Part shown: in pieces, positions 6,339 to 23,908 of the stretch
Numbering within the stretch: the stretch's first letter is position 1
How the letters are laid out: each line of letters begins with the position of its first letter
Assembly (NCBI GenBank): GCA_019247235.1
Contig: JAFAPG010000045.1
Coordinates: 1-31,128 of the forward strand
Direction of reading: 5' to 3'
From: Acidobacteriota bacterium
Lineage (GTDB): Bacteria; Acidobacteriota; Terriglobia; Terriglobales; Acidobacteriaceae
Length of the DNA: 31,128 nucleotides
Made by a program: the position numbers and the translations under genes
The notes under the pieces: generated by a model
Seen by the model: the letters and a program-made list of their open reading frames with translations, nothing else
Told to the model about the DNA's origin: nothing
Database searches by the model: none

Positions 6339-8327
6339 TTAGTGAGACACCCAGTTCGAGCCGTTGCAATAGACAGGGATTCTCACCGCGCCTCCACCTG
6401 CGACGGTCGCGTTGTAGGTGGGCGCATTGGCGTCAGTGACGATGCGAATTTGATCCTGAGCACCAGCGTTGCAAGTGGGAAGACTGGCGACGGTGCTAGC
6501 CGGACCTATCACGGGTGAGGACAGCGTTTTATTTGCAAGCGTGTCGGTTGTACTGGCGAAAACCAGGGTGTCAAAGGAGCCTGCGGCTGCATTGGTGCCC
6601 TGTGAACATTTCGCGCGATATGCCGTGCTGTCGTAGTAGCAGAGAAACAAATTGGTCGCTGGCCCGATATTGACGGAGCCCACAGCCATCGGAGTCATGC
6701 CCCAAGTGAAAAATTCCGGCGTATCCACCGGCCCCCAGGTCTCGCTATTGTAGGCGGAGCCCCCATTGTTGATCGCCGGGTTGTTGGCCGAACTGGGATA
6801 GCAAGCCAGTCGATTGCCTGCGGTAGCCATCGACGAATCCCCTTTGATGTGCCAGTTATAGCTTCCTCCCGATAGATCGATCAGCGCGTCGCAAATCGCA
6901 AAGCCGCTCTGATCCCAAGGGTTTATTGATCGCCAGCTGTTGTTATGTACGTCCACATCGGCGCAGTTGTTGCTAGTCGATTGGATCCCGTGTGCGTGAC
7001 CTCCTCCGTCGAACTGCACGCCGTTGATTTCCATTCCCAGTACTTTGTCACACACGAGAGCTTTATGCGTGTTGCAGGTAGTCGAGCTGTCACCGCAAAG
7101 CTGAAGCACCGAGTCATGGATGTGAATAGCCGCTCCGTTTCCTATGTGCCACGCCGTGAACGTTCCTCCCAAAGCTCCATAGGAAGCGCTGTAGCACTGA
7201 TCGCATTCAATGCCTGCCGGAGCAGGACCACTCGACGCCCCAATGTCATAAGCAGTGGTCGTAGCCGCGTAGCACTGGATATTTTTCATCACCACATTGA
7301 CAGCCGCGTTGCCGCCGCCTCCATTCACGAGGTTTATGCACTTCGGCATTGTCGAGGACGAGTTGAAATTGATCTGAACGCGCTCGATCTGAACGTCGTA
7401 GATACCTGAAACGGCGTTCTGTTGTTGTCGGATATAGGAGTCTGAATAGTTCGCGGTCGTCGGGCTGTAGTTAACGTCGCGGACTTTGATGTGCGCTCCA
7501 CGCAGCGCGATCGCGGAAACAGCCGTTCCAGAATTGGTAAACACGAGCTTCTCGACCGTGACCCAGTATCCAGTAACGAACTGATCGACCCCTGCGCAAG
7601 ACGTGCATTGAATCTGTGTAGCTTTTTCGCCAGCTCCTCGCCAGATGCAACCACCATTCTTACTGTCGATCTGCGCCGAATGTTGATAGGTGCCCGCGCC
7701 GAAAAGGATGGTGCCAAAGTTCTGAAATCCATCGCCGGCCGTCCCAGCACACACCGCATTGACCGCCATAGTGAGGCCGGTGTCGTTGCTTGCGGCCGAG
7801 TTCGAAGTAGATATGCCGAACCACTCCGCGTACGTATTCGCGATGGCAAGCGGCCCGAGCGTCAATTGTGTCCCAGTGCAATTTTGGAAATGCTGAGAAG
7901 CGTCGGCGACGATCGGCGCGTTTATGGTGAGCGTATTCCCGTTGCAATTTAGGATCGCCCCATTGTCCATCTGCAACGTGACCCCGGCGGGGATGGTAGT
8001 GTTCGCGGTCAGCGAATAGGACGACAATGAAGTAAAAGCGTGAATGTAACCGCTAGATGCGGCGCAGGCGACCGCAGAGGCAAAGGTGTTGTTTGAGTCG
8101 GCGGAGCAGGAGCCCCCTAATTGCTTCAAATTTAGGTTGCCGGAAAATTTCGCTTGCCCCTTCCCGCTCTGCGAGATACACGCATCGTTGCCATCGTCTT
8201 CCCCGACGCAAAACTTGTAAGGCGAGAGCACGCGAACATCAGACGACGACCGCCCACCAAAGTTCTGCGCGAAAAGCGGCAAAGAGCAAGAAGAAAAGAG
8301 AGCGAGAACAAAGACAATCTTTTTCAT
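6339..8327 (-). CDS. Beta-helix (pectate-lyase-like) tailspike/depolymerase with N-terminal signal peptide
   Basis: MKKIVFVLALFSSCSLPLFA|Q; TILFGAGTY..GCIWRGAG beta-helix entry; C-terminal TVASLP..VTDA..VAGGG..PVYCNGSNW fibre motif. Confidence 0.8.
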   Translation of the reverse strand: MKKIVFVLALFSSCSLPLFAQNFGGRSSSDVRVLSPYKFCVGEDDGNDACISQSGKGQAKFSGNLNLKQLGGSCSADSNNTFASAVACAASSGYIHAFTSLSSYSLTANTTIPAGVTLQMDNGAILNCNGNTLTINAPIVADASQHFQNCTGTQLTLGPLAIANTYAEWFGISTSNSAASNDTGLTMAVNAVCAGTAGDGFQNFGTILFGAGTYQHSAQIDSKNGGCIWRGAGEKATQIQCTSCAGVDQFVTGYWVTVEKLVFTNSGTAVSAIALRGAHIKVRDVNYSPTTANYSDSYIRQQQNAVSGIYDVQIERVQINFNSSSTMPKCINLVNGGGGNAAVNVVMKNIQCYAATTTAYDIGASSGPAPAGIECDQCYSASYGALGGTFTAWHIGNGAAIHIHDSVLQLCGDSSTTCNTHKALVCDKVLGMEINGVQFDGGGHAHGIQSTSNNCADVDVHNNSWRSINPWDQSGFAICDALIDLSGGSYNWHIKGDSSMATAGNRLACYPSSANNPAINNGGSAYNSETWGPVDTPEFFTWGMTPMAVGSVNIGPATNLFLCYYDSTAYRAKCSQGTNAAAGSFDTLVFASTTDTLANKTLSSPVIGPASTVASLPTCNAGAQDQIRIVTDANAPTYNATVAGGGAVRIPVYCNGSNWVSH

Positions 8328-8333
8328 GAGACC

Positions 8334-10553
8334 TTATCGAGTGACGCGGAAATTCAAAGTCGCTGCTGTGGGGGTGATGGAGTTCGCGGTCGGATTGCAG
8401 TACTGAAAGTTTACGTTGTTCGCGGTCGGCCAGACGCTGACCACTAGCTGCGCGGGATTCGCGGCCGGCGCGGCGTTGTAACTCCAGGTGATGGCGTCGG
8501 TCGTCGCTACCCCGGTTGCTCCTACCGTGACCGTCGTGCCGCAAGCTCCTGATGCAATCGCGGCCGTGGTCATCGTCGCCGTGCCTGCCGCAAGCGACTG
8601 GGTCATGTTAAAGTAAGTGCCGTTATTGATTGAGCACTTGAGAACGTGATTGGTGGAGTCGCCATAACACCAGTCTTGTCCGCTTACGCCCGCGCCGTTG
8701 TTCGGTGTTCCGGTTTCGTAAAACGTGAGGCTGGGAATTTTTGGCCCGATCGATTTGAAGCTATTGTCGACAAACTCCGCTCCTCCCCCGGTGACGGTGA
8801 AGCTGTTCAAGCCGACTTGAACGGCCGCTGCGGTCGCTCCTGAATCGATTTGTAAGCCGTTCGCGTTGGTGAGTGACACCGGACCATAGTTGCGGTCAAT
8901 CAAGACGCGAAAGCTAGCGGTCTGAACTCGAATGGCCGCAATCGCCGAGTTGGTTCCGCTAGACCCCAAGCGGATGAAGTTGCCCGCGATTTCCGCGTCT
9001 CCGATTCCGATGAACTGGACGCCCATGTCGGTGACATCGATAAAGTTGTCCCGAACGTACTGCTGCCCACTTCCCGAGGTCTCGACCCTGACGCCTGCCA
9101 CCTGGCCGAAGGAGATCAAATTGTTGGTGAGGTGTACGTCGCCCGAGTCGCGAAAGTAAACCCCGTACGAAGAGCCGTTGGTCTGATTGAAGTCGTCGAT
9201 CGCGTTATGATCGATCCAGCTGTCGGCGCAGCCCCAGCAATAGATCCCCGCGGGCGCCGTTCCCGCCGAATCGTTTCTAAAACTGGTTTGCGCGGCAATG
9301 AGGTTGTTGTAATGAATGAAGAAGCCGCCGACCCCGCCACCAGCCGATGCCGGAGAACTCAGGCTGCCGTTATCCACCGCGACTGAGTGCGAAGTGGCGT
9401 TCTTGATTTCCAAGTGATCGAGGTAGGTGGTATTCACCTTCCCCATGTGAATGTCATAGACGGCTGAAGATTGGTTTTGGGCGTTCCCGTCGATCGAGAG
9501 GAAGGCAACCCGGGTCCAGTAGATAGTTCCGGCCGTCTGCCCGGTTTCGGCCGCATTGACCCCGATCAGGACGACAGAATGGTTGAGCGAGTTCGCGGCC
9601 TTTAGCGTCGTCTTTTCTGGCCCGGCTCCGATTAGCTCCATTCCCGAGACAAACTGAATCGGGGTCGAAACCGTGTAAGCGCCCTGAGCCAGCAGAATGG
9701 TGCAGCCCCCGGGCGCGGCCACTGGGCCGACACCAGGAGTGACTTGCGGCCCGGTGTAACTCGGGCAAGTCGCACTTGCCGAATTGATCCAGGCTCCTGG
9801 GTCCGAGCCTCCCCAGCCGGCAGAATTTGCGGTATCGACGCAGCGTATCTTTTGAAACTGGTTACAGGTGGCGGTCCCGGTCAGCGTCACCGTGCTCGAA
9901 AAGGTGTTCGCGCCGGAAAAGGTGTTATTGCCGGAATAGGTTCCCGCGCCCGAGGCATTGATCGCCGATGCATTCACGTTCCAGCGATTGCCGGTTGAGC
10001 CAAGCGAAAGCGTACCGCTGCCTGTGGGAGTAACGTTTGCCTGGAAGGGTTGGTTGGCGCCGTCGAGCCGGGCATAAGTAGTATCCCCGGTTGGCGAGCT
10101 GACGACTGGGTTAGTGGTGATCGGAGCCACCTGGGAGATATCTAGCGTGGTGCCTGATTTCGCATGGACGGGCACCTCCGGTCCGGCTTTGCCGTTGAAC
10201 CAGGCTTGCATGCCGTACCAGACGGCCGTAGTCGAACCCCCGCAATTGATATCCCCGCCGAGCAGGCCGGTTGAATCGCGGGTTGAGTAAAGCGTCCCTG
10301 AGACGGCGCCGGATGAGTTCGCGGCAAGGTCGAAATAGAACACTCCCCCCTGAGAAGGCGCGATGAGCGAGGTTCCAGAGACGCGCGGCTGGTTCCCTCC
10401 GCAGCCTCGGAGCCAAAAGCGCATGAAGGCGTTCGGCGTGGTTGCCCCTGTCCCCAGGTTTTGCATGGTGCCGGTAACCGTGGTCGTGGCCTGGACGATG
10501 GCCGGCACAAAGAGCAAGGCGAGAAGTCGAATGAGTCGTTTCATCATCATCAT
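8334..10553 (-). CDS. Beta-helix tailspike with signal peptide and tail-fibre-N-like domain (start is one of four tandem ATGs)
   Basis: MKRLIRLLALLFVPAIVQA|T; TILLAQGAY..MELIGAG beta-helix entry; N-terminal TVTGTMQN..FMRFWL resembles lambda Stf N-terminal domain. Confidence 0.8.
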   Translation of the reverse strand: MMMMKRLIRLLALLFVPAIVQATTTVTGTMQNLGTGATTPNAFMRFWLRGCGGNQPRVSGTSLIAPSQGGVFYFDLAANSSGAVSGTLYSTRDSTGLLGGDINCGGSTTAVWYGMQAWFNGKAGPEVPVHAKSGTTLDISQVAPITTNPVVSSPTGDTTYARLDGANQPFQANVTPTGSGTLSLGSTGNRWNVNASAINASGAGTYSGNNTFSGANTFSSTVTLTGTATCNQFQKIRCVDTANSAGWGGSDPGAWINSASATCPSYTGPQVTPGVGPVAAPGGCTILLAQGAYTVSTPIQFVSGMELIGAGPEKTTLKAANSLNHSVVLIGVNAAETGQTAGTIYWTRVAFLSIDGNAQNQSSAVYDIHMGKVNTTYLDHLEIKNATSHSVAVDNGSLSSPASAGGGVGGFFIHYNNLIAAQTSFRNDSAGTAPAGIYCWGCADSWIDHNAIDDFNQTNGSSYGVYFRDSGDVHLTNNLISFGQVAGVRVETSGSGQQYVRDNFIDVTDMGVQFIGIGDAEIAGNFIRLGSSGTNSAIAAIRVQTASFRVLIDRNYGPVSLTNANGLQIDSGATAAAVQVGLNSFTVTGGGAEFVDNSFKSIGPKIPSLTFYETGTPNNGAGVSGQDWCYGDSTNHVLKCSINNGTYFNMTQSLAAGTATMTTAAIASGACGTTVTVGATGVATTDAITWSYNAAPAANPAQLVVSVWPTANNVNFQYCNPTANSITPTAATLNFRVTR

Positions 10554-10801
10554 TGGCCGTACATCCGTCGATAGAAGTTCTGCAGGTTCCCCATGGCTGG
10601 CGAGCGCTGGCTGAAAGGGTTCTGGCCCGCCTGGGGCGTAGGATTCTGCTGCTGCATCTGGCCTGAATCCTGAAAGTTGGGCGGCAAGAGCGGCGTCTGC
10701 GGGTTGACCGCCTGAGGCTGAACCGCGTTCACCGAGTTGGCCGCGTCCGATGAGCCATAGGGCGCGGAAGGCAGCATGTACTTGGGCGGAACCTGTCCCA
10801 T
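10550..10801 (-). CDS. Small Q/P-rich putative ejection/internal virion protein (MGQV...)
   Basis: TAAGGA SD; low complexity; stop overlaps tailspike start. Confidence 0.7.
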   Translation of the reverse strand: MGQVPPKYMLPSAPYGSSDAANSVNAVQPQAVNPQTPLLPPNFQDSGQMQQQNPTPQAGQNPFSQRSPAMGNLQNFYRRMYGQ

Positions 10802-10835
10802 TTTGGGAATTCCTTAGTGTGAAAAGAGTTGCAGC

Positions 10836-10864
10836 TTGCTAGCTAAGCGGTAAGGTGGCACAAT
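10836..10864 (+). promoter_or_regulatory. Sigma70-type promoter for the antisense membrane gene
   Basis: TTGCTA (10836..10841), 17 nt, CACAAT (10859..10864) with extended -10 TG at 10856..10857. Confidence 0.55.
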
Positions 10865-10872
10865 GCGAGACG

Positions 10873-11037
10873 GTGACACTGGAGAGAGCGTTTGCCTTTT
10901 CGGTTCTCGTTGCTGCGGGATGGGCTGCTGACAAGTGGCTCTATCCGCGCCTGGGAGCGCCGCGCGTAATCGCCTGGCTGCTCTTTGCTGGTGTCGGAAT
11001 TTTGGTCTGGCTCGTGATGAACGCTGGATTACGCTGA
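10873..11037 (+). CDS. 54-aa two-TM protein, moron/superinfection-exclusion candidate (leaderless GTG)
   Basis: Two hydrophobic helices; occupies a 300-bp gap in the minus-strand operon; GTG lies at the predicted transcription start. Confidence 0.55.
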   Translation: MTLERAFAFSVLVAAGWAADKWLYPRLGAPRVIAWLLFAGVGILVWLVMNAGLR

Positions 11038-11100
11038 TGCGATTCCCCGACTGGGTACTCCCGGAACAGCGCATGCCTTGGGGGGATTATTTTCGCCCTG

Positions 11101-12123
11101 CTACTGCCCCCGCCTTGCCTTTGCTTGCGCAACTGACCTTTGTAGAACATCGGTCAAGTCGCCCGAACCCGAAGCCTGGGAATCCGTGCCGCCGCTCCTT
11201 ACGCCAGGTGTCTTTGTATATTTTACGGGCCGATCGGCCGTCCCCGTCAAGACGCTCTTAGGCGTTCGAGCCCTGGTGTTTCGTGCCCAGCCTTCCGCCT
11301 CACCTTGCCGCCGCAATGCTTCGCTCTCCCCTTCCGCTTGATTTCGTACTTGATCTTGAATTTGCGCAGTCTCAGCGATGTCTTCCGCACTGCCCGGCAA
11401 CGGACCCTTGCCCGGCGAGAACTGCATCTGCGCCTTTGGCGGCATCCAGGGGAGTTGAGCTTGCGGTGTCGGCGCGGGAGCTTCGACGGGCGAAGGTTGC
11501 GCGGCTCTGACTTGTGGAGCGGCAGTTTCGGCTTCCGCTTCCGCTGCTGCTCCTTCTCCCTTGCCACCAGTGAAAAGAAACGGCAGCCACTCAGCCGCAG
11601 AAGGAATGAAGCGTCCGACTCCGGGGATTTGCCTAGCCTGGTGGACCGCCTGCTGAGCCACCATGGCTGTAATGACCGGATGCTGTGCTGCTTGGCGGCC
11701 AAGAAAAGGGAGCGCCACTCTGCCAGCTGCTCCCACTCCCGTAGTAGCCGCAAGCGCTCCAGCACCCATGAGCGCATCTTCCGGGGTGGGATTCGAGGCA
11801 GCATCGGCGGCGTAGATGTTTCGATTCATTCTTTGCAGGTCGGGGTCGCTGTTGTCCTGTTTCCCAAGACGCGATTGCTGCATTTGCCGTGCCGCTACTT
11901 GACGCGACGGCGGGGCTCCGGCCGCCGATGGTGGGGCGAACAGGTCTGGCCTTGTTAGCTGAACTTTCTGAGTCGCGCGCGAGACGTACTGTTGCGTATC
12001 TTCGTCACTCAGCGACCCAAAGCTCTGATCTCCAGTGGCGCGCGAGAGTACAGCCCGTTGATCGCCTGGAGCTAGAGCCTGGAAATCCTTGTCGGCGATG
12101 AGGGCGGCGAGATCAGAAGCCAT
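11101..12123 (-). CDS. Putative DNA ejection protein
   Basis: Ala/Gln/Pro-rich with Gly/Ala hydrophobic stretch LMGAGALAATTGVGAAG; position between nozzle and tailspikes. Confidence 0.7.
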   Translation of the reverse strand: MASDLAALIADKDFQALAPGDQRAVLSRATGDQSFGSLSDEDTQQYVSRATQKVQLTRPDLFAPPSAAGAPPSRQVAARQMQQSRLGKQDNSDPDLQRMNRNIYAADAASNPTPEDALMGAGALAATTGVGAAGRVALPFLGRQAAQHPVITAMVAQQAVHQARQIPGVGRFIPSAAEWLPFLFTGGKGEGAAAEAEAETAAPQVRAAQPSPVEAPAPTPQAQLPWMPPKAQMQFSPGKGPLPGSAEDIAETAQIQDQVRNQAEGESEALRRQGEAEGWARNTRARTPKSVLTGTADRPVKYTKTPGVRSGGTDSQASGSGDLTDVLQRSVAQAKARRGQ

Positions 12124-13759
12124 GTTTTTTTAGGAGTGAATCGACGTTGCCGGAGGAAGCCGCTGCCTGTTGTCCGTACTGGCGCACAAGATAGCGGTTG
12201 GTTCCGACGAGCGCAGATTTTCGGGCCGAGATGTCCTGGCGCATGATCGCGATGGCCCCAGCCAGCTGTCCCTTTGAGTAACTGGCACGCAAGAGCGAAA
12301 GCGCCTGATCGCGGCCAGTGTCCGAGGAGATTCCGCCACCCATGACTTTGCTGTACTCGTCCGCAAGCCCGAGCATGGCGGTGTGAAAATTCGACGCAGC
12401 AGTTGATCCGAATTCCGTCGACGCTGCGTTGAAAACCTTATTGAGCGTGGCTTCATCGAACTGTGGCAGATTGGATGCCTGTTTCTCCGCGATCTCTATG
12501 GCTCCACCCTTCTCGGTCATGCCGTTGATCATCTTCAGCGTGTTCTGGGTCTGCGGGTTCCGAGCATACTGGTAGTCGCTCGATGCTTGCGCGATGTCGA
12601 AGGGCTTCCCGTACTTCTGCTGGGAGTACTTATCGGCACGGTCGAGAATGATGGGATATCCCTTGTCATCCTTCTTCAGCTGCGACGGGTCCATGTCGCC
12701 TTCGACCAATCGCCGTGCAGTTGAATCAATTACGCTCCCGTTGCCGCCACCAGCAGCATTGCTATTGCTGCCACCCGCAGGAGCTCCAGCGCGGCGAGCT
12801 CCGCCGCTCGATGCTTGCGGGACACCTGAATTTGCGGGCAGCTGTTTGGTTTTCGTGCTGGTTGTGGTAAGCCCGAGCGGGTCAGTGGTACTCGTGGTCG
12901 TCGGTGCCGCATTGATCTGGTTTCGCTCGAGCTGTGCGAGATTGGCGACGGTCATAGGCTTGCCGACGAAGTTCGCGGGAAGACCGTAATCCTGAGCCAT
13001 CTCCGATGTGATGGTGACGCCTTGTTCCGAGCCGGGCAGTAGTTGGCGAGATTGCGTGTCGTACAGCCCAACTCCCGGTACCGCCATGAATCGTTTGTTA
13101 ACTTCAGCCGCCTGAACTCGACCCTGCGCCCCGATATCGGCACTCTGAACGCGGCTCTGGCCACCGATCTTGGCGGCGTCAACTTTTCCTTGGTACCCCA
13201 GATATGGGCTCAGGATCTTCGAGGCCAGCGCGGCCGGCATGTTTCCGTAAGGGGTCTCGACTGGCTGTAAGCCTGCCTGCGCAAGTCCCGTTTCCGCTTG
13301 TTCCTTCTCGAGCTGGAGCGGCATCGCCGCCCGCAGAAATGGAAGTTGATAGCCTGCCTGAAATCCTGTCCCTACGCCTCCCGATCTTCGTCCGCCCGAC
13401 TGAATGACAGCTTGTTCTGAAGCCGCGCGGCCGGCGAGTGCGCCCTGTAGCCCGCTCATCAGAAGCGTTGCCAGTTTCCCGCCCTTGGTGAGCGCCGGGC
13501 TCATCGCGTTAGGAATTCCTGCCGGTCCGGTTGCCGCTGCTTGTTGCAGGTTTGGTGTCCCCATTGTGGGTAGATTGTTCGCGTTCGGCCCCTGAGAATC
13601 TTTGTTAGACAAAAGAAACGCTGGTTGGGTCTGGTCGATAGCTTGATTCGCCCGGCTCATAACCTGTTGCGGAGAGCCGACAAACGTAGGCTGGCCTTGG
13701 GAATTGCTGAGCATGGAGTTTGGAACCGTCAGCCCCGCCGATTCGAATAAGTGTCCCAT
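12113..13759 (-). CDS. Putative DNA ejection/transfer protein (MGHL...)
   Basis: Gly-rich hydrophobic N-terminal region, 11-residue repeats, helical C-terminal domain; GAGGA SD. Confidence 0.75.
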   Translation of the reverse strand: MGHLFESAGLTVPNSMLSNSQGQPTFVGSPQQVMSRANQAIDQTQPAFLLSNKDSQGPNANNLPTMGTPNLQQAAATGPAGIPNAMSPALTKGGKLATLLMSGLQGALAGRAASEQAVIQSGGRRSGGVGTGFQAGYQLPFLRAAMPLQLEKEQAETGLAQAGLQPVETPYGNMPAALASKILSPYLGYQGKVDAAKIGGQSRVQSADIGAQGRVQAAEVNKRFMAVPGVGLYDTQSRQLLPGSEQGVTITSEMAQDYGLPANFVGKPMTVANLAQLERNQINAAPTTTSTTDPLGLTTTSTKTKQLPANSGVPQASSGGARRAGAPAGGSNSNAAGGGNGSVIDSTARRLVEGDMDPSQLKKDDKGYPIILDRADKYSQQKYGKPFDIAQASSDYQYARNPQTQNTLKMINGMTEKGGAIEIAEKQASNLPQFDEATLNKVFNAASTEFGSTAASNFHTAMLGLADEYSKVMGGGISSDTGRDQALSLLRASYSKGQLAGAIAIMRQDISARKSALVGTNRYLVRQYGQQAAASSGNVDSLLKKHGF

Positions 13760-13763
13760 CGCG

Positions 13764-14024
13764 TTACCGTCCTCTCCCTCGCTTCGGTTTGACGCCCATC
13801 ATGGTTCCCGCTGAGGTCGTATCTCCGTACGGCTGCATCTGGCGCGCCGCAAATTCCGTACCCACGCTCGCGGGAGTGGGAGCCTGGGGAATGAACGGCC
13901 CACCTGTGGGATTGAGACCCCCTGAGTTCGGGTCGTACTGCGGCCAGTTGTTCAGGCCGGCAAGCTTCTGGCGCACTCCGTCGAACGCTCCCGCGCCGGT
14001 TGAACTAGCTGGAATCTGTCCCAC
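13764..14024 (-). CDS. Small putative ejection protein (GTG start, MGQI...; ORF-track start 14255 is too far upstream)
   Basis: GGAAGG SD 9 nt before GTG; GTG 2 nt after upstream TAA. Confidence 0.65.
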   Translation of the reverse strand: MGQIPASSTGAGAFDGVRQKLAGLNNWPQYDPNSGGLNPTGGPFIPQAPTPASVGTEFAARQMQPYGDTTSAGTMMGVKPKRGRGR

Positions 14025-14026
14025 GG

Positions 14027-14329
14027 TTAGCTGCCTTCCCCGTAACCATAGAAAAACGGGTTCTTGGTCGGACGCGGTCCTGAGCCGCCCGGGGTAAAGT
14101 TTTGCGCGCTGAATTGAATGTTCGAGGGAACTGCCGCGGCCACTTGCGGCATTGCGCCTCCCCCGCCCTGGCGCATCTGGGAGTTCTGCTGCTGCATATT
14201 CGAAAAGCCGTTCAGCAGACCTTTGCCCGCGCCGCCCAAGAAGCGCGCGCCCCACTCAGAACCCGAGAATCCGGACGGGTCCGCGTCAAAGGTGTTCGGA
14301 TTTTTAAACGCTGCTCCTACTTGTCCCAT
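14027..14329 (-). CDS. Small G/Q-rich putative ejection protein (MGQV...)
   Basis: AGGAG SD; low complexity. Confidence 0.7.
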   Translation of the reverse strand: MGQVGAAFKNPNTFDADPSGFSGSEWGARFLGGAGKGLLNGFSNMQQQNSQMRQGGGGAMPQVAAAVPSNIQFSAQNFTPGGSGPRPTKNPFFYGYGEGS

Positions 14330-14341
14330 AGCGAGTGTCTC

Positions 14342-14887
14342 CTAAAAAGGAAGTGCCGAAGCCATGCCGCCAGCGAGTCCTCCGAGCAATCCCCCAAGAC
14401 CAGGGGATGCGAGCGGCGCGTTCATCACGCTAGCGTTCCCTTGAATGGCTTGACCGGAGTACTGTGCCGGGTTGGCGATCTGGGCTTGCCCGAGCAGTCC
14501 TGAGGCGCCGGCCTGGCGTGCAGCGAAATTTGAGCCAAGATTCTGTTGTAGCTGCTGATCGAACGCTCGCGCCTGTTGTGAGGCGAGATCGGTGCGCGCC
14601 TGCTCGGCGAAGCCTGAGGGAAGCATGTTGGTCTGTTGTCCGAGCTGCCGCTCGAGCTGCGCCTTGGCCGGCTGAAATGCCTGCGCCGTGGTGCCCGATG
14701 AAGCGTCGGTCAAGCTGTTGAAGTAAGGCAGGCCCTTATCCATCATCGACGTATAGAAGGGATTGGCCTTATTCTGTTGCGCCTGCTGAAACTGAAACTG
14801 CTGGCCGAAAACATTCGACAGCTGGTTATCGAGGTTGGCTTGCGCCGTAGCTGCCTGTTTTTGTTGCGGGCTTGGTCCGCCGCCCAT
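14342..14887 (-). CDS. Putative DNA pilot/ejection protein, P22 gp7/T7 gp14 position (MGGG...)
   Basis: AAGGGGAG SD; Gln/Ala-rich helix with C-terminal GLGGLLGGLAGG. Confidence 0.8.
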   Translation of the reverse strand: MGGGPSPQQKQAATAQANLDNQLSNVFGQQFQFQQAQQNKANPFYTSMMDKGLPYFNSLTDASSGTTAQAFQPAKAQLERQLGQQTNMLPSGFAEQARTDLASQQARAFDQQLQQNLGSNFAARQAGASGLLGQAQIANPAQYSGQAIQGNASVMNAPLASPGLGGLLGGLAGGMASALPF

Positions 14888-14900
14888 AATGTATCTCCCC

Positions 14901-15347
14901 TTAAATCTTGACGCTCAGCCGGTCCGCAGGCTGCGCTCCCACTGCACGGAGCGATTCTTTCCATTTTGCGCAGCGCTGTTCCGGGCGCTCTTTTGAGCTG
15001 ATGTGAATAAAGGCTTCATGCCCACGCGCGCCTTGATCCTGAAAAAATCCCCTCATGCGGTCGGTCAGCATCTTCGTGGCTCGTACCGCGTGATCTCCCG
15101 AGACGCGAAACACCGGAAGATCGATCCGCATGACGTAGCCGGTAATCCCCAGGATCTCCTTGTAGGAGCCGTCGGCATCAAGTGATACCGCCACCCAAAC
15201 TTTGGCGAAGCGCGCGAGGTTCAAATCTTTGCCGCCTTCAAGTTCACGCGCGCAGTAGTCAACCGCGAGGTCGTGGAGCTTTTTGTCGACTGGCTCTAAG
15301 AGCGCGCCCTGGCCTTGAAAGTCGAGCGGATAAACTGCGATTCGCAT
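14901..15347 (-). CDS. GNAT-fold-like protein (position of T7 gp13-type acyltransferase-like genes)
   Basis: alpha-beta pattern KVWVAV...ILGITGY...; TGATG coupling to the Hint gene; position before ejection genes. Confidence 0.55.
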   Translation of the reverse strand: MRIAVYPLDFQGQGALLEPVDKKLHDLAVDYCARELEGGKDLNLARFAKVWVAVSLDADGSYKEILGITGYVMRIDLPVFRVSGDHAVRATKMLTDRMRGFFQDQGARGHEAFIHISSKERPEQRCAKWKESLRAVGAQPADRLSVKI

Positions 15348-16198
15348 CAGTTGCCGTAGGGCTTCAAGTTGTGCGCGAAGCGCCCATTCACCAGGCGGTA
15401 GCAGTGGTCATCGTCGAGCTTTGAAGGTGTATCGAGCTCGAGGTTATAGACCTTGCCCGAAAATTCGACGCGGGGATAGCGTTCGGTGTTCTTCAAAACC
15501 TCCGCCGCCGGCTTCCAATAGCCATAACCGGCAAACATCAGATGCTCAGGCGTAACCAGCTCGCCTTTCCCCATGTCGATCATCTCGCCAGAAAAGTCGT
15601 GCACTTCGACAAACGCTACACGCTTCCACCCAAGCCGCGAGCAGACGCGATCGCCAATTACCAGTTCCTCGATCGGCTTTAGGCGATGCAGGGTAAAAAC
15701 CCGCGTGTTGCCGGAGAAGCAGGCTCCTCCGTAGCGGCTGACTGAAGTTGCCGAAGGCGCGTAGTCGGTCGTATAGGTTGGAGGGGTTACGGGCATCGCC
15801 GGCGCGCCAGTCTCGGCCGTCGCCGAGCCTTGAATCATCACCTTTTGCGATTCGCGGCCAATCTTTGAAACCGAAGAAATGAAAAAGTTCGTGGTTGGTG
15901 GCGTCGTGCCGGCCGTGCAATCGACGAAGTGCTGAGTTGCCAGGGGATCGCGAATCTCAGCGAACAGCGAAGTTTCAGAATCCTTGTACACCCGGTAGCC
16001 GGCGAGGTCGGTAGCATAAAACGGAGGCCGCCAATTAAGCAGCACGCCCCGCGGCGCGGCGGTTGCAATGACGTCGCGCGGTGGATCGGGTTTACGGTCG
16101 GTTCCTCGGGTGATAGTTGTGTCCTGCGCGTCCCGGCGCGCCTGAATACGTTCGTTCGGGGTCATGTTGATCCCGTAGTTACGCCGAATGATCTTCAC
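15347..16198 (-). CDS. FN3-like domain + Pro/Thr linker + C-terminal Hint (intein-like) domain
   Basis: PDPPRDV...VLLNWRPP...LAGYRVY...FFISSVSKIGRES (FN3); GGA|CFSGNT, VTPEH, VYNL...NGRFAHN (Hint). Confidence 0.85.
   Translation of the reverse strand: MKIIRRNYGINMTPNERIQARRDAQDTTITRGTDRKPDPPRDVIATAAPRGVLLNWRPPFYATDLAGYRVYKDSETSLFAEIRDPLATQHFVDCTAGTTPPTTNFFISSVSKIGRESQKVMIQGSATAETGAPAMPVTPPTYTTDYAPSATSVSRYGGACFSGNTRVFTLHRLKPIEELVIGDRVCSRLGWKRVAFVEVHDFSGEMIDMGKGELVTPEHLMFAGYGYWKPAAEVLKNTERYPRVEFSGKVYNLELDTPSKLDDDHCYRLVNGRFAHNLKPYGN
15368..15721 (-). other. Hint/BIL-type autoprocessing domain (Cys160..Asn277), no homing endonuclease
   Basis: Block A Cys-Phe, block B TxxH, terminal His-Asn followed by Leu. 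Confidence 0.85.
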
Positions 16199-16204
16199 CG
16201 CGGC

Positions 16205-18787
16205 TTATCTTTCGCGCTCGTCGCCAATCGCAGGAATCAGTTCGTACAGTCGCCCGTAGGTCTCAAGCGGCACGTGCGGAGGAGAGTTCAGTGCGAGATT
16301 TCCATCCGCCGAGTGCGAGCTCAGCTGAAAGCGCAAATACACGTGCTGAATTTCTGGCGCCGAAAGGTAAGCACGATAAAGCGAATCATTCTCGGCTCCC
16401 TGGACGGCTTGCGCCGGGTTGTCAGACGGGGTGAGGGCTTCAAATGCAAACTGCGCGCCCGCGGCCAGGGAGGTTGAAAGCGTCTTGCCCACGGAGACGT
16501 TAATCAGCGAGTCGCCGTACCAGTCGATGAACGGCACGCTTGGGCGATCCGTTCCTCCGTTTACGAGCAAGATCAAATCCGCGGCGTACTGATTTCCGAT
16601 GTCATCCGCTCCGGAATAGAGCTGATAGAGCTGGCCGTTGGTTGAGCCGGCATAAATCTGGAGCGCCCCAGTCGCGTCTCTCACTTGGGCGACGGTGAAA
16701 GCGTTTGAAAGCTGGCCAACGTACTGCTCGGCGTAGCCTTGGCCATAGACCGAGCCTGGCGCCTGCATATACTCGCGCAGCTTGAAGTCGTGTTTTACGG
16801 TGTAAGGCACGCCCCCGGATTGGCCTTCAATGCGCAGCTCGTCTTTCCCTTGCTGGGCGTTACGGTAGTAGACGAGCTCTACCTGGGAGAGATACGTCGA
16901 ATCGATTTTGAAGAGCTCCGCGGCTTCATATTCGTCTGAGACCACAACCGGCACGCCGTTCTGAAGCGTAACCAGCTGCTTGTCGCCTGAGAGCCAAAAG
17001 AATCCGTGCGAGCCGCATTTCGTGCCCGCGCGCCGCCCCGCTATTCCCACGTTGAAGGGGCCAACCCATTGCTGAATGCCGGCCAGGTTGACCGAGAGCG
17101 CGCAATCGTGGAGCGTGCCCATCAAAATCTCTTGATCAATCTCAAAGATGGCGGTTGCTGCTTCGCCCGTGGGAAAAGTATCGATATCGTTTGCCGCCCA
17201 GCTCTGTTCTGGGCGGCCGGTAACGACTCCCGAACGGTCGTCGGCGAGAGACCCCGAGCGGCGAAGCGTAGGAGATCCGGTGTCGGCGGCGTAACAGTAG
17301 TCTCCTGCCACGGCGAACATATTCGACTGCGCCGGGATGATGCCATTCCTGGTAGGGAGTTCGTGGTTGCCATCGGTGATTGCCTGATAGCCAATCAAGG
17401 ATGTTGAGCCGTTCTGCCCGTACAGCCAATTGCCAGCATTGTCGGTGGCGACATAGGGCACGAGGACTCCGTCGCCGGTTCGCCCAACCAGAAACGACCA
17501 TTCCGTATCGGTCCCTGAGTAGTCGGGCAGGCCTTGAATATGAAAGTTGCAGCGGTTAGGCTGCGCGGCAAAAGACTTCCCTGGAAGATAGCGCCCGCCG
17601 ATCGCGATCCTGTTGCCTGCATGGCCCCCGCCGTTTGGGTTATAGATCGCGCCATAAAACTGGTATCCGGGATTTGAACCGCCCACGGTTGATTGCGCGA
17701 GCCCTCGGTTCTCGTTGGCGATAGGCGTAGGGCCGACTAGGTTCTGAGTCGCCAGCACATCGACCGAGGTGGCGGCGTTCGCGGCCGTCACCGCTTGCGA
17801 GATCGAGCCTCCGCTAGAGGCGACGCTGGGGCCGTAATTCGTATAGGCAAGCGTGGCCGAGTTGGGCACGCTGGCGACCTTATAGACGCCATTGAAACTG
17901 TCATCGGCTACGAGATTCACGACGATGATGTCGCCGACGGAGCGTCCATGTGCGCTCTGGGTACCGATGGTGACCACATTAGCCGCGCGCGAGACGGAGG
18001 CGTTCTGGACGAGCGTTCCTGGCTGGTAAACGAAATAGCCAACGTTCCCGCCGTCGTAAGTCGTGGCAATAACCTTGATCCAATTGGCGTTGACGCCTGA
18101 AAGATTCGGGAGAGTTGCGACGGTTACTTTTTGGTTCAGCGCGACGTTTACCCGCGCGCCTGATCCGGCGACGATGGTCGCTGGCCCGCGTTCGTTGTTT
18201 GAGCTATCAAAAATGGCGACGTAAAAGAGCAAGCCGATTGAAGTTGCCGCCGATTGCCCGCCCCCTGCAGGCGTGAAAGTGATCGAAGTGTTTTCGGCTG
18301 TGGTTAGCTCTCTGACGCCATCGACGATGGTGACGTTTTGCACTTCGGCTGAGGTTGGAGCCCGCAATCCGTTGGTGCGCCAGGTCGTGCCGTCAAACCA
18401 TTTCTGGTCGGTTCCGTTTCCGTAATGGAAGCGATTGTTGGCGAAATAGCCTGCGCCTTTTGCCGAGCTGCCGACCGCCGCGCCTCGCACCGTGGGAGTG
18501 GTGACCACTCCGGTTCCGGTGTTTAAAACCTGGAGCGTCGTGCCGCTCATGAACAGTACGTACTTCGTTCCGTCCCAGGTGCGATAAGGAAACATCGAAT
18601 GAATGGCCGACGATGCGGTTGAATTCATCGTGACCGTCGAATAGCCCCAGCGCAGCTCCCAGAACCCCGCTTGCTTCGGTACCCAGTTCAAGCACCGAAG
18701 TGCCCGATTTCTGGGCATATTGATCGGGTTTGAGCGCGAATCTACGCCGCCCGCGTCAATTTGCTCAAACGGTTGGAGGCGAGCCAT
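16205..18787 (-). CDS. Tail nozzle/stabilization protein (T7 gp12/P22 gp10-like position)
   Basis: 860 aa beta-rich; N-terminus GGVDSRSNP..MP..ALRCLNW..ELRWGY typical of podoviral tubular protein B; follows adaptor. Confidence 0.75.
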   Translation of the reverse strand: MARLQPFEQIDAGGVDSRSNPINMPRNRALRCLNWVPKQAGFWELRWGYSTVTMNSTASSAIHSMFPYRTWDGTKYVLFMSGTTLQVLNTGTGVVTTPTVRGAAVGSSAKGAGYFANNRFHYGNGTDQKWFDGTTWRTNGLRAPTSAEVQNVTIVDGVRELTTAENTSITFTPAGGGQSAATSIGLLFYVAIFDSSNNERGPATIVAGSGARVNVALNQKVTVATLPNLSGVNANWIKVIATTYDGGNVGYFVYQPGTLVQNASVSRAANVVTIGTQSAHGRSVGDIIVVNLVADDSFNGVYKVASVPNSATLAYTNYGPSVASSGGSISQAVTAANAATSVDVLATQNLVGPTPIANENRGLAQSTVGGSNPGYQFYGAIYNPNGGGHAGNRIAIGGRYLPGKSFAAQPNRCNFHIQGLPDYSGTDTEWSFLVGRTGDGVLVPYVATDNAGNWLYGQNGSTSLIGYQAITDGNHELPTRNGIIPAQSNMFAVAGDYCYAADTGSPTLRRSGSLADDRSGVVTGRPEQSWAANDIDTFPTGEAATAIFEIDQEILMGTLHDCALSVNLAGIQQWVGPFNVGIAGRRAGTKCGSHGFFWLSGDKQLVTLQNGVPVVVSDEYEAAELFKIDSTYLSQVELVYYRNAQQGKDELRIEGQSGGVPYTVKHDFKLREYMQAPGSVYGQGYAEQYVGQLSNAFTVAQVRDATGALQIYAGSTNGQLYQLYSGADDIGNQYAADLILLVNGGTDRPSVPFIDWYGDSLINVSVGKTLSTSLAAGAQFAFEALTPSDNPAQAVQGAENDSLYRAYLSAPEIQHVYLRFQLSSHSADGNLALNSPPHVPLETYGRLYELIPAIGDERER

Positions 18788-18789
18788 AG

Positions 18790-19509
18790 CTAGGTCGAGC
18801 GGACCGCGTCTTCAGACATGGCGAGCTGGAGTTTATAGTTTGGGTCGAACTGGCGCTTGGCCATGAGATCGAGGATTCCCTGCTCGTACTCTTCCTTCGC
18901 GTCTTCTGTTTTCTGGTTGGTCGAGCCGTATGCCCACTTGAAAATCTTCCATACCAGCCCCGAGACGATGGTGTTGTGCCCCCAGGCGGGAATGAGCGGC
19001 ACAGCGTCGTTTGTCGAGTCGGTCGCCGGGTTCGGGATCGCCCAGCCCACTACATAAGCCGTATACGCCGCGTCTGGCGGATCCATGCGAATAACGTTGA
19101 TCCCGCTTGGGTCAAGCGTGTAGCGCCCGCCTGGCGCGTTCACGTTTCCCTGCGTAGGCGAGGTAATGGTCGTGTTCTGGATCATCTCGAGCAGAGTCTC
19201 GGGATCGTACATCGGGAGCATTTCGGCCGTCTGAAAGGGATTGGTTGGGATGATGAGCGAAAACTTGGTGATTTCCTCGAGCAGGATCTCGGTCATCGCT
19301 CCGGCTGGCGTGGTCACGACCGAGGTTAGATCATACGTCGGCTGGGCCACGACCGTCTGAAAGCTAAAGACCAGGCGCCGCCACCAAAACCGCTGGCGCT
19401 TACAGATGTCCTGCAAGACCAGGCGGTAGAGGTTGGGCAGGGATAGAACCTTTTCGCCCTTGCGCTCAGAGAGCTGGTTGGCCAGCTCGAGGATTTCGGT
19501 TCGAGTCAT
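18790..19509 (-). CDS. Head-tail adaptor (T7 gp11/P22 gp4-like)
   Basis: MTRTEILELANQL N-terminal helix; PLIPAWGHNTIVSGLVWK..AYG C-terminal motif; position. Confidence 0.7.
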   Translation of the reverse strand: MTRTEILELANQLSERKGEKVLSLPNLYRLVLQDICKRQRFWWRRLVFSFQTVVAQPTYDLTSVVTTPAGAMTEILLEEITKFSLIIPTNPFQTAEMLPMYDPETLLEMIQNTTITSPTQGNVNAPGGRYTLDPSGINVIRMDPPDAAYTAYVVGWAIPNPATDSTNDAVPLIPAWGHNTIVSGLVWKIFKWAYGSTNQKTEDAKEEYEQGILDLMAKRQFDPNYKLQLAMSEDAVRST

Positions 19510-20887: not shown

Positions 20888-22542
20888 GCGAGGACCAGCT
20901 CCGGCTTCTGCTCGAAGGCGACGCCGAGCCTCGCCTTCAACTTGCGAATATCTTCAGCCCGCGCGGGTGCAAGGTTTTGGTAGAGCTCGTCCACGTTGTC
21001 CGCTTTATGCCGCTCCAGGCGCTCTTTGTGGGTTTTGTCCCACTCGGCCTTTCCTGTAAGCGGGTGCATGTGCTCGGTGACAAAGGGCAGCGGCACGCGC
21101 CGGCCGATCGCGCTTGCGACTTCGTTCAGCCAGGTATCGTTGTAGTCACTAGAAAAGTAAGGTGGACAGAAATATCCGACCGTCTCGATCCAGGCGCGAT
21201 GCAAAAAGCCATGCGTGCCAAACTGGTCGCCGTACACTCCGTCATCGCCGTGCACGAATACTAGGCGGTCCGGGAAGGCGGCAAAGGCGCGCCGTACGTA
21301 GTCGTCCCAGCCCTTGGTCTTGAAGACGATGTCGTCGCCCGCGTGCATCAGAATTTCGCCAGTTGATACTTCGGCGCAGCGGTTCCACATCTTCGAAAGC
21401 GTGATGCGCGGCCCAAGGACGTTCTTAATCTCTACGCCTTTCCAGAATTCTGGGCCGGGCGTGCAGTCGTCTAAGTCTCGGTAGAGGACAATCTCAGGCA
21501 TTACCGTAGAGGTCTCTAGTAATGAGTCGATCAGCCGTTTGATATTCTCCGGCCTTCCCCTGGTCGGGCAGAGGATTGAAATCTTCATCTCCGGCACGTC
21601 CATCGGATACTGCCCGTGCACCTTGGCTTTCAGGATCGATTGCTCGCGATAAGGCTCAAAATCTCGAATCGAGTAAGAGTAGTGGCCGATGTGTCCAGGC
21701 TGGATTGAGGTGTCGCAGTAGCTCGAGATCCCGGCGTAGCGCTTGGCGACCATGCAGAACCCGACGTCTTCTCCGTACTCGATCGAAGATTTGAATGCTG
21801 GCAGAAATCGGAACCAGTAGCAGAGCTTCTGCTCGTCGAAGGCTTTGAGGCGCGCCGTCTTGATCTCTTCCGCGCGTTCGCTCGAGATCCCATAAAACTC
21901 TTTCTCCCACAGGCAATCAAAGTACGATTGAGCGACTTGCTCGAGCGCGTGCTGAGTGATCAGCATCAGGCCTGTGCCGACGCCTCCAACCTCGAGGAGT
22001 TGCCCTTCCGGCCATTCCCAGATTTGCCCAAAGTCGCCGGTCTCTTCGTTGAAGTGGCGAATGTTTGGAATTGGCGGGTCGGTCCTCCGGGTACAGAGTC
22101 CGGCCACGATGTCCTTTTTATGGGAAAGCAATTTCTCGAGGTGGTCTTCTTCGACCACGATGTCATCGTCGACAAAGAGAATGTGCGTCCAGGGCTTCCC
22201 GCTCTTTAGCTGTTCGGTAATCAGGCCGTTCCGTGACCAGTGCACAACCGAGGCTGAAAGCGGCGCGCCTGCGTAAACCGTGGCGATATCTTTCTCCCGG
22301 GTGTAACGCACCATGCGGCCAAGCGCGTCTTGCATCTGCGGCTCAGGGGCGCGGTACGTGGGGCAGAGAATGCATACGATGGGCTTCTGCTCGGCAGGGT
22401 TCTGTTTCTGGTCCTCGGGCGCCTCAACCGAGATGCCGTAATCTTTGAGTGCGGCGCGGCCGTTCGCCGAGAGCAAGAGCAGTTTCGCGCGCTTACGCCA
22501 TTTCTCCGCCTTCTGCGCTTCGAGTTTGTCTTTGAGGCTCAT
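20884..22542 (-). CDS. Glycosyltransferase with two tandem GT-A (GT2-like) domains
   Basis: Domain 1 ILCPTY..SRN..LFVDDD..GTGLMLI..GEDVGFC..GHIG; domain 2 ILCPTRGRP..WN..GDD..DYNDTW..EHMH. Confidence 0.88.
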   Translation of the reverse strand: MSLKDKLEAQKAEKWRKRAKLLLLSANGRAALKDYGISVEAPEDQKQNPAEQKPIVCILCPTYRAPEPQMQDALGRMVRYTREKDIATVYAGAPLSASVVHWSRNGLITEQLKSGKPWTHILFVDDDIVVEEDHLEKLLSHKKDIVAGLCTRRTDPPIPNIRHFNEETGDFGQIWEWPEGQLLEVGGVGTGLMLITQHALEQVAQSYFDCLWEKEFYGISSERAEEIKTARLKAFDEQKLCYWFRFLPAFKSSIEYGEDVGFCMVAKRYAGISSYCDTSIQPGHIGHYSYSIRDFEPYREQSILKAKVHGQYPMDVPEMKISILCPTRGRPENIKRLIDSLLETSTVMPEIVLYRDLDDCTPGPEFWKGVEIKNVLGPRITLSKMWNRCAEVSTGEILMHAGDDIVFKTKGWDDYVRRAFAAFPDRLVFVHGDDGVYGDQFGTHGFLHRAWIETVGYFCPPYFSSDYNDTWLNEVASAIGRRVPLPFVTEHMHPLTGKAEWDKTHKERLERHKADNVDELYQNLAPARAEDIRKLKARLGVAFEQKPELVLA

Positions 22543-23021
22543 GCTTGCGCGGCCTGGGAGGACGCTTTCTGGATCCAGCTCTGCAGCTCCGCTTCCCGGG
22601 CTTCTTTCACGGCCTGGGCGTGCGACTGCTCGATCGCGCCGGCAAGAATTCTTGCTTTCGCGATTGCCTGCTCGAGCTCGGCCGGGGTCATCGGATCGGT
22701 GCGACGGGATGCGCGTTTATTGGCTTCGGCTCGCTCTTGCGCTTCAACGTCGTCCGCGCACGGCTGTTTGAGTTTCTCTTCCTGCTCGGCCCGGTATTCA
22801 GGCTTGCGGATATAGAAGACGCCGTCTGAGTCGTAGCGCTTTTCGTATTCGTTGGGATGGGCTTCAAAGCCCATGTGGATCTTTTTGTCCGAGGGCGTGG
22901 TGAATTTCTCGAAGGTACGAGGCGCGCAGCTGGGGCACTCGTCCGCGAGCTGTACGCCCTTGTCAGTCCAGCGCGAGCGTACGCGCCGGGATTCAGACTT
23001 GCAGTTCGAGCAGATTGCCAT
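22539..23021 (-). CDS. Zinc-ribbon protein with helical C-terminus
   Basis: CSNC...CPSC; overlapping coupling on both sides. Confidence 0.7.
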   Translation of the reverse strand: MAICSNCKSESRRVRSRWTDKGVQLADECPSCAPRTFEKFTTPSDKKIHMGFEAHPNEYEKRYDSDGVFYIRKPEYRAEQEEKLKQPCADDVEAQERAEANKRASRRTDPMTPAELEQAIAKARILAGAIEQSHAQAVKEAREAELQSWIQKASSQAAQA

Positions 23022-23518
23022 TAGGCGGGCTGTTTCTTCTGTTGCTTAACCTGCGCGAGCAGTTCGTTCCTCTCGTTTTCGAGACGCTGCTCGGCGGCGC
23101 GCAGCTCGTGCTCTTTTTGCGCCAGGCGCTCTTCGGCCGTCTTCCACATCTGATCCCACTGCTCTTGTGTAGCCTGATAGCTGGGTTTCTTGTCGAGCCA
23201 GTACTGAATCTCGGGATCTTTGGTCGAGTATGCCCCGTTGATAAATTCAACCGAGCCCTCGCCGACGAGTTTCACTTCCCCGCCTTCCATGACTTTTTTG
23301 GCGGGCGGAATGTTGCAGACGACAGTTCGGCCGCGAATTACGGGCGCCGTAGAGCCCTCGGCAGGTTTTCCGGGGTCAAGCGGCGCGTCAAGGCAGCGAT
23401 AGGTCTTCTCCTTGACCACGTGGTTCGATTGGCCATCGGCGCATGTCCACTCGCCGATTCCGAATTTCTTCCCGCAAACTTCGCAGGCCCACTCGATAGG
23501 TTGTTTCGCTTGTGACAA
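23021..23518 (-). CDS. Hypothetical protein, N-terminal Cys/His cluster, C-terminal coiled coil (TTG start)
   Basis: GAGGAG SD; WACEVC..WTC..H. Confidence 0.7.
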   Translation of the reverse strand: MSQAKQPIEWACEVCGKKFGIGEWTCADGQSNHVVKEKTYRCLDAPLDPGKPAEGSTAPVIRGRTVVCNIPPAKKVMEGGEVKLVGEGSVEFINGAYSTKDPEIQYWLDKKPSYQATQEQWDQMWKTAEERLAQKEHELRAAEQRLENERNELLAQVKQQKKQPA

Positions 23519-23522
23519 AGGC

Positions 23523-23837: not shown

Positions 23838-23851
23838 CGGTCGTTCACTCC

Positions 23852-23885
23852 AAAAGAATCGGGAGAGGCTTTCGAGGCCCCTCCC
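23852..23885 (-). terminator. Intrinsic terminator after major capsid gene
   Basis: GGGAGGGGC/GCCUCUCCC stem, 7-nt loop, followed by gauucuuuu. Confidence 0.75.
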
Positions 23886-23908
23886 GTTAAAGCAACCAGG
23901 GCGAAACC

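Follow-up and report, generated by a model that had tools for sequence, protein, structure and literature searches.

The contig JAFAPG010000045.1 of the Acidobacteriota bacterium assembly GCA_019247235.1, analysed here over its entire length of 31,128 nucleotides (the window), raises the question of why a GNAT-fold protein, a tail protein carrying a Hint (bacterial-intein-like, BIL) autoprocessing domain and several proteins starting with Met-Gly are encoded side by side in a phage gene block. A first-pass annotation of the DNA had proposed that the three features act together as one covalent-maturation system. From the results presented here we arrive at a different answer. The block represents the tail tip and ejection module of a soil podophage that is uncultured and has a capsid of the SU10 type, and we give slightly better than even chances to the reading that it constitutes a T7-type ejection module, in which the GNAT-fold protein acts in a gp13-like manner, the Gly N-termini are specifically recognised and the Hint domain removes itself in a separate process.

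Based on the reading of open reading frames (ORFs) and their junctions, all genes of the block are located on the minus strand and form a single, tightly packed operon (Table 1). The genes coding for the 860-aa tail protein, the 283-aa FN3+Hint protein and the 148-aa GNAT-fold protein and four Met-Gly ORFs are consecutive, with overlaps or gaps of at most 13 nt, which bears out the contiguity described in the first-pass annotation. A Shine-Dalgarno-like run was found ahead of every Met-Gly start.

The layout resembles that of phage T7, in which the gene order is gp11-gp12-gp13-gp14-16, followed by the fibres, and gp13 is a protein of 138 aa listed in Pfam as 'probable scaffold protein Gp13' (PF11090, phrog_308). 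As in T7, a small gene (148 aa compared to 138 aa for T7 gp13, the internal virion protein A) lies after the nozzle gene and ahead of the first ejection gene in the window. The next gene is gp14-sized (181 aa compared to 196 aa in T7), and larger ejection proteins and then fibres or spikes follow. A published table was also used for the comparison of the T7 proteins (PMC8954989). The earlier statement that no described system shows this combination overlooked the gp13-gp16 arrangement of T7, i.e. a GNAT-like gene accompanied by internal virion proteins. Two differences were observed: the window has an extra FN3 gene between the nozzle gene and the gene in gp13 position, and the T7 ejection proteins do not start with Gly.

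Stand-alone GNAT-like genes of around 140-160 aa are also part of the tail/ejection module in SIO1-like phages (Cobavirus), VpV262 and HTVC010P-type podophages (PMC6775973; PMC8477408), and the SIO1 GNAT was equated with T7 gp13 in the Cobavirus study (PMC6775973). Pfam acetyltransferase models or phrog_308 detect the GNAT-like proteins of these phages, albeit weakly, but do not detect the 148-aa family. HTVC010P gp14 (151 aa), encoded directly after an 854-aa tail protein, matches the T7 gp13 PHROG with an E-value of 3.3e-7 and Acetyltransf_4 weakly. Judged from these matches, it would link the gp13 family to the GNAT fold; for T7 gp13 itself, a GNAT fold would be putative. The downstream genes of HTVC010P start with MSF, MPK and MDL, not with Gly. 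The HTVC010P gene pair is located at positions 8086-11095 of locus L036.

Phage SU10 (genus Kuravirus) has the capsid and adaptor families in common with the window and likewise encodes several ejection proteins (gp20-24) after its tail genes (gp11 adaptor, gp17 nozzle, gp18 needle). It differs in that the region contains neither a GNAT-sized gene nor an FN3 or Hint protein, and its ejection proteins are larger and mostly lack a Gly start. BLASTP and hhalign comparisons with SU10 gp17 and gp22, HTVC010P gp13-gp22 and T7 gp13 revealed no homology. In SU10 (L034, KM044272, positions 21904-23937), gp21 starts with MSLFGK and gp22 with MGLFGGGG. Many relatives of the 548-aa ejection protein start with MGxLF(S/G)GG, a motif in common with SU10 gp21 and gp22, while no other similarity between these proteins was detectable.

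The 148-aa protein has 50 close homologues with identities of 52-78%. An exhaustive profile search yielded a family of 124 clusters, all of which are stand-alone proteins of around 145 aa. No match was obtained in Pfam, PHROG and PDB sequence searches with the 148-aa protein, and the Pfam acetyltransferase models matched neither this protein nor any of 66 diverse family members at E-values up to 1. Searching GenBank phages by tblastn with the protein and two distant relatives gave no match, and three single distant family proteins found nothing in IMG/VR. The family was seen only in viral-type contigs. It occurs in one other contig of a metagenome-assembled genome (MAG), which belongs to the Terriglobales, and was not found in the other 400 searched genomes of the phylum.

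An AlphaFold model of the 148-aa protein, built from 25 homologues, reached a predicted local distance difference test (pLDDT) score of 81 and a predicted TM-score (pTM) of 0.77. Its order of secondary structure elements, b1-a1-(a2)-b2-b3-b4-a3-b5-a4-b6, is that of GNATs. Foldseek matches to GNATs were weak in both the PDB and the viral models, and a language-model atlas placed the protein next to viral Acetyltransf_1 clusters. N-terminal acetyltransferases (Naa80, Ard1, RimI, Naa10/50/60) and PanZ were tied as top structural matches. The GNAT fold suggested in the first-pass annotation is thus confirmed at the level of the predicted model and its structural matches. What the protein does would not follow from this structure, in which N-terminal acetyltransferases and the binding-only PanZ both tie at the top.

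The cofactor site was compared at the motif-A loop (Q/R-x-x-G-x-G/A, between b4 and a3), which reads R81-V-S-G84-D-H86 in the 148-aa protein and is therefore partial. In some close relatives, Asp stands in place of G84, and both the length and the sequence of the loop differ across the wider family, with indels. Only R143, D76, R97, D104 and G109 are kept across the wider family. In GNATs, coenzyme A (CoA) is bound largely through backbone atoms, so the sequence of motif A alone cannot decide on CoA binding. As far as the alignment goes, the canonical CoA loop appears not to be conserved in the family, and the GNAT fold would not by itself imply a cofactor site.

Met-Gly starts were found in five of the six ejection-module genes, compared to none of the other 22 genes of the window (Fisher p = 6e-5), an enrichment that is more than chance. 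The ejection proteins are mutually unrelated according to BLASTP. The 181-aa protein, encoded immediately after the GNAT-fold gene in nearly all loci that are informative, has 298 homologous clusters with a nearly fixed length, which is exactly 181 aa in most of them. The N-terminus MGGGP[ST] is present in around 104 of 106 full-length homologues, with Ser or Thr at position 6 in 103 of 106 orthologues, and positions 7-11 vary. At the C-terminus, G[LM]ASA[IL]PF is invariant and is preceded by a Gly-rich hydrophobic stretch. Orthologues of the 100-aa protein start with MGQ or MGS in all 11 loci; their Gly codons vary, and the position corresponding to position 6 is small in all of them. For the 548-aa protein, an MG start was observed in 15 of 18 loci, the exceptions being MSNLLAKLF (L018, L019) and MNILQKLF (L030). 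Orthologues of the 83-aa protein have MG wherever the start was read (MG[QS] in L001, L015 and L018, and the same start in L019); a further orthologue is present in L035.

Across these orthologues, the codon of Gly2 varies among GGA, GGC, GGT and GGG. Because this variation is synonymous, selection on Gly2 acts at the amino acid level. Gly2 is retained in four or five mutually unrelated proteins, and Ala or Ser never takes its place at the Met-Gly starts. The N-terminal Gly is hence a real, selected feature, which supports this part of the first-pass annotation. From the known specificity of methionine aminopeptidase we infer that the mature N-terminus is a Gly exposed after removal of Met.

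The Gly-first N-termini are polar, the first 20 residues being hydrophilic in four of the five proteins, which rules out a role as fusion peptides as a general explanation. A nucleotide motif at the starts (TGGGACA) was also ruled out, since Gly and the following codons vary among orthologues. Several database versions of 181-aa homologues run upstream through an Ile codon located just ahead of GGGPS, which suggests that ATT, ATA or ATC may serve as start codons of this gene in some phages.

The model of the 283-aa protein calculated with AlphaFold2 (AF2) shows four parts: an N-terminal helix, an FN3 sandwich, a disordered linker and a compact domain. The FN3 part is a seven-strand beta-sandwich with Foldseek matches to chains 2w1n (E 4.5e-5), 6hyf and 1k85 (E-values from 4.5e-5 to 8e-4) and a weak Pfam fn3 match (0.096), and it is conserved in all related loci. 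The compact domain, with pLDDT values of around 90 across residues 160-277, is of the Hint type. It matches the Tetrahymena BIL2 structure 6y75 (E 7.8e-7), the mini-intein gp41-1 (6qaz, 3.6e-6), Vint (8r2c, 1.8e-5) and a Clostridium BIL (2lwy, 1.2e-4). Pfam scores stay below the gathering cut-offs (Vint 23.4 bits compared to 27, E 5.9e-5; Hint 19.2 compared to 29.7, E 1e-3), while a precomputed PF14623 match exists for P0176, a protein 76% identical to the 283-aa protein.

The catalytic set Cys160, T-P-E-H in block B and the terminal A-H-N277 is present. In six members of the Hint subfamily, C-F-S-x-N, V-T-x-x-H and A-H-N are invariant, and the residue after the Asn is Leu, Ile or Thr, with 3-8 residues in all between the Asn and the end of the protein. 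In the window, Leu follows Asn277, six residues remain to the end and no Cys, Ser or Thr is present at the +1 position. A splicing intein is excluded, as the domain has neither this +1 residue nor a C-extein to ligate. The residues are those expected of a domain able to form a thioester, as stated in the first-pass annotation, and the thioester should form between Ala159 and Cys160. As a +1 nucleophile is absent, it must then be passed on to water or to an outside nucleophile.

The domain shares the fold, Cys1, the block-B T-x-x-H, the terminal His-Asn and the lack of a +1 nucleophile with BIL- and Hedgehog-type Hint domains, including Tetrahymena BUBL BIL2. As for the BIL type, the expected reaction would be cleavage or transfer rather than splicing. 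The window type differs in its location at the extreme C-terminus of phage tail proteins, ending 3-8 residues after the Asn, and in the absence of a sterol-recognition or downstream cargo domain. Elsewhere, the subfamily likewise occupies the extreme C-terminal end of phage proteins with lengths of 270-1339 aa and is preceded there by Gly/Ser linkers. In P0178 (985 aa), two tandem Hint copies are present at the C-terminus (residues 748-861 and 866-982), joined by AHNLKAGG followed directly by CFSGN; the second Cys could serve as the +1 nucleophile of the first copy.

Comparison of the related loci separates the Hint domain from the other two features. A homologue of the 148-aa protein is encoded in thirty contigs from metagenomes, in a single IMG/VR contig and in the Terriglobales MAG contig, and co-occurrence was judged within this one syntenic clade. 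Wherever the upstream neighbour of the GNAT-fold gene can be seen, the alignment of its product with the 283-aa protein is restricted to residues 1 to around 140-170 of the latter. The FN3 proteins of 21 relatives end within a few residues of the Cys160 position in the alignment, and that of L035 likewise ends near the Hint junction, so that Hint is absent in 22 of the 23 related FN3 proteins with readable C-termini. P0176 is the sole other FN3+Hint form found. The 22 contigs without Hint retain both the GNAT-fold gene and the Gly-first genes, and neither the GNAT family nor the 181-aa gene is present in six IMG/VR viral loci with the Hint subfamily. Since it is missing in the 22 relatives and occurs elsewhere without these two genes, Hint is a lineage-specific addition to the FN3 protein and stands outside any conserved GNAT/Gly-first system. 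The coupled system of Hint, GNAT and Gly substrates put forward in the first-pass annotation, for which the annotation itself had named failing co-occurrence across relatives as the refutation, is not supported by this comparison. Its proposal that the Gly attacks the Hint thioester is left without comparative support, given the absence of Hint from the relatives.

In one locus (L002, positions 1-329), the place of the FN3 gene ahead of the GNAT-fold gene is taken by a stretch on the opposite strand that seems to encode the N-terminal part of a tyrosine-integrase-type protein. Either a rearrangement or a chimeric assembly could account for this.

Taken together, in the T7-type reading the module follows the layout of T7 genes 11-16, with an adaptor, a nozzle, a small FN3 tail protein, the GNAT-fold protein in the gp13 slot and the ejected proteins. 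By analogy with T7 gp13, the 148-aa protein would be a morphogenesis factor for loading or maturing the ejection proteins. It might do so by acyl transfer or by merely binding them, the latter in the manner of PanZ, a GNAT-fold activator that only binds. The host methionine aminopeptidase would expose Gly as mature N-terminus of the ejection proteins. As neither Ala nor Ser ever takes its place at the Met-Gly starts, this Gly would be the target of a specific recognition. The Gly N-termini would represent a clade-specific feature. Hint would cleave itself off between Ala159 and Cys160 via the thioester and leave an FN3 protein of the size found in the relatives, much as C-terminal modules of other phage fibre proteins remove themselves.

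Several points weigh against this reading. The 148-aa family gave no sequence or profile match with PF11090/phrog_308, and hhalign yielded a probability of 0.5% with T7 gp13; for want of a sequence link, we do not file the family as a member of T7 gp13. Among the BFVD models, a 135-aa 'host specificity protein A' from a T7-like vibriophage, which we take from its name to be gp13, gave a weak structural match (E 1.4e-2, TM-score 0.41-0.44). T7 gp13 has a role in the production of infective particles, but what it does is itself poorly known. As the related loci form a single syntenic clade, the association of the GNAT-fold gene with Gly starts reflects shared ancestry and is no independent co-occurrence. 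The self-cleavage of Hint is deduced from residues alone, and nothing accounts for why Gly in particular is kept.

The gp13-like reading was weighed against four others, of which two assign an enzymatic role to the GNAT-fold protein. As in one of the two models of the first-pass annotation, it may be an N-terminal acyl- or acetyltransferase that modifies Gly1 of the co-encoded ejection proteins and thereby aids membrane insertion or packaging, comparable to the myristoylation of picornavirus VP4 and preS1 of hepatitis B virus (HBV). VP4 and preS1 are likewise small proteins inside the virion that are released at entry and whose mature N-terminus is a Gly with polar residues after it. N-terminal acetyltransferases among the tied best matches, the position of the gene immediately upstream of the invariant MGGGP[ST] gene, the selection for Gly2 in unrelated proteins without any replacement and N-termini too polar for fusion peptides all fit this idea. 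The Ser/Thr or small residue at position 6 agrees with the G-x-x-x-S/T habit of eukaryotic N-myristoylation substrates. N-myristoyltransferase (NMT) is itself a GNAT-fold enzyme. However, NMT is a host-supplied tandem GNAT of around 400 aa, whereas the window encodes a single domain of 148 aa, in which the NMT Pfam family gave no match. The partial CoA loop with its variation and indels in the family, the lack of a Pfam acetyltransferase match in all 66 members and an apparent Leu at the usual alpha-4 Tyr position (registered by eye) also argue against a transferase. With all GNATs tied, the structural matches to N-terminal acetyltransferases are unspecific. Moreover, the GNAT-like slot genes of T7, HTVC010P and SIO1-type phages accompany ejection proteins without Gly, and SU10 has MG/MS-LFG N-termini without such a gene. 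We regard modification of Gly1 as unlikely, and the specific proposal that a diverged single-domain phage GNAT acylates or acetylates the invariant N-terminal Gly of several ejection proteins before packaging as quite unlikely. If the GNAT-fold protein were instead packaged and co-injected, it could acetylate a host target and be unrelated to the phage's own proteins, comparable to T4 Alt or the GNAT toxins TacT and AtaT. Its tightly coupled gene inside the ejection module, GNAT toxins among the weak Foldseek matches and a family confined to viral-type contigs and not found in the other 400 phylum genomes searched are consistent with such an effector. The toxin GNATs are not specifically similar, though, as all GNATs tie; the CoA loop is not conserved, and the positional counterpart T7 gp13 was described as a morphogenesis or scaffold factor (PMC6775973). 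An effector role is distinctly improbable.

The remaining two concern the Gly N-termini and the Hint thioester. The Met-Gly starts might reflect only Met removal together with a small, flexible and stable N-terminus, or a start context at the RNA level, without dedicated recognition. SU10 gp21 and gp22, which start with MS-LFG and MG-LFG in a phage without a GNAT gene, and the three 548-aa orthologues with non-Gly starts point in this direction. Ala or Ser would suit Met removal equally, yet neither replaces Gly at the Met-Gly starts in four orthologous groups; in the 181-aa protein, residues 1-5 are invariant whereas positions 7-11 vary, and the other genes of the operon lack the feature. We consider it improbable that Met removal or start context alone accounts for the starts. 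A tether to the tail through FN3, finally, would arise if the free amine of the Gly at the start of an ejection protein, or the Thr of a spike, resolved the Hint thioester. All residues for an N-S acyl shift are present without a +1 nucleophile, and nature provides an example of an amine attacking a Hint thioester: Tetrahymena BIL2, the best structural match, conjugates its own N-terminal domain to Lys amines of other proteins (PMC8616854). Against such a ligation, 22 of the 23 related FN3 proteins with readable C-termini lack Hint, yet the Gly N-termini are retained in their phages, and the Hint loci elsewhere are without the GNAT family and the 181-aa gene. Self-cleavage alone would restore the protein length of the relatives. 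Attack of an alpha-amine on an intein thioester is, in addition, slow without Cys. Ligation to Gly or Thr is hardly credible for this phage.

In short-tailed phages, the small gene located after the nozzle gene and ahead of the internal virion protein genes, i.e. T7 gene 13 and its counterparts, still has an unclear role, on which the clade described here bears. It adds a gene in the gp13 slot with a confident GNAT fold that escapes annotation at the sequence level, and downstream neighbours that are otherwise unrelated but share an invariant N-terminal Gly. With 124 clusters for the GNAT family and 298 for the 181-aa protein, material is sufficient for comparative and biochemical work. Acylation of the Gly, if true, would provide bacterial viruses with a parallel to the N-myristoylated entry proteins of animal viruses, and the gp13 slot of podophages, long unexplained, would gain an enzymatic function. 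A separate lead is the Hint subfamily at the C-terminus of phage tail proteins, which may be a self-removing or possibly a ligating maturation module. Should both modifications be absent, the block is an ordinary, divergent ejection module of the T7 type.

Table 1 Features of the tail-tip and ejection module and of neighbouring genes in the window
Feature	Coordinates	Strand	Remarks
SU10-type major capsid protein gene	23909-25120		upstream of the block; Pfam SU10_MCP
SU10-type adaptor gene	18790-19509		upstream of the 860-aa gene; Pfam SU10_adaptor
860-aa tail protein, nozzle (T7 gp12 / SU10 gp17) position	16205-18787	minus	directly after the SU10_adaptor gene
283-aa FN3+Hint protein, GTG start	15347-16198	minus	gap to the 860-aa gene 6 nt
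FN3-type beta-sandwich (residues ~38-125; model strands 41-124), after the N-terminal helix	15824-16087	minus	AF2, Foldseek
Pro-rich, then disordered linker (residues 126-159)	15722-15823	minus	pLDDT <50 at residues 138-156; proteins of the relatives end here or a few residues later
Predicted Hint (bacterial-intein-like) autoprocessing domain, Cys160-Asn277	15368-15721	minus	Foldseek, motifs, weak Pfam
Six-residue tail LKPYGN after the Hint Asn, with stop codon overlapping the ATG of the next gene	15347-15367	minus
148-aa GNAT-fold protein, T7 gp13 position	14901-15347	minus	ATGA overlap with the 283-aa gene
181-aa ejection protein, gp14 position, MGGGPS, Gly-rich hydrophobic C-terminus	14342-14887	minus	gap 13 nt
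100-aa Gly/Gln-rich protein, MGQVGA	14027-14329	minus	gap 12 nt
86-aa predicted protein, GTG start, MGQIPA	13764-14024	minus	gap 2 nt; least certain gene
548-aa ejection protein, gp15 position, MGHLFE	12113-13759	minus	gap 4 nt
340-aa ejection-module protein, MASDL	11101-12123	minus	sole module member without Gly2
83-aa protein, MGQVPPKY, fifth Met-Gly gene	10550-10801	minus	immediately upstream of the first tailspike gene
Two tailspike genes			downstream of the 83-aa gene; signal peptides in both

The 860-aa tail protein is conserved in the related loci with identities of 47-65%. No match was obtained by tblastn against GenBank phages, and the pairwise comparison with SU10 gp17 revealed no sequence similarity. 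The label 'nozzle' is positional and derives solely from its place after the Pfam SU10_adaptor gene. For the 283-aa protein, an alternative ATG start is available at Met12.

The 86-aa ORF is the least supported of the block, with a single weak homologue (L030, E 1.6e-4). Its start was taken as the internal GTG at 14024, which lies 2 nt past the preceding stop codon and is accompanied by the Shine-Dalgarno-like GGGGAAGG; its coding status is weakly supported. The frame is open upstream to a GTG at 14255, overlapping the 100-aa gene by 229 nt in another frame.

The window represents the entire 31-kb contig (C354) of a genome bin with 958 contigs and a completeness of 79%. The contig is probably a free phage genome fragment that was binned with its host, rather than a prophage, and the host group of the podophage is probably the Acidobacteriota.

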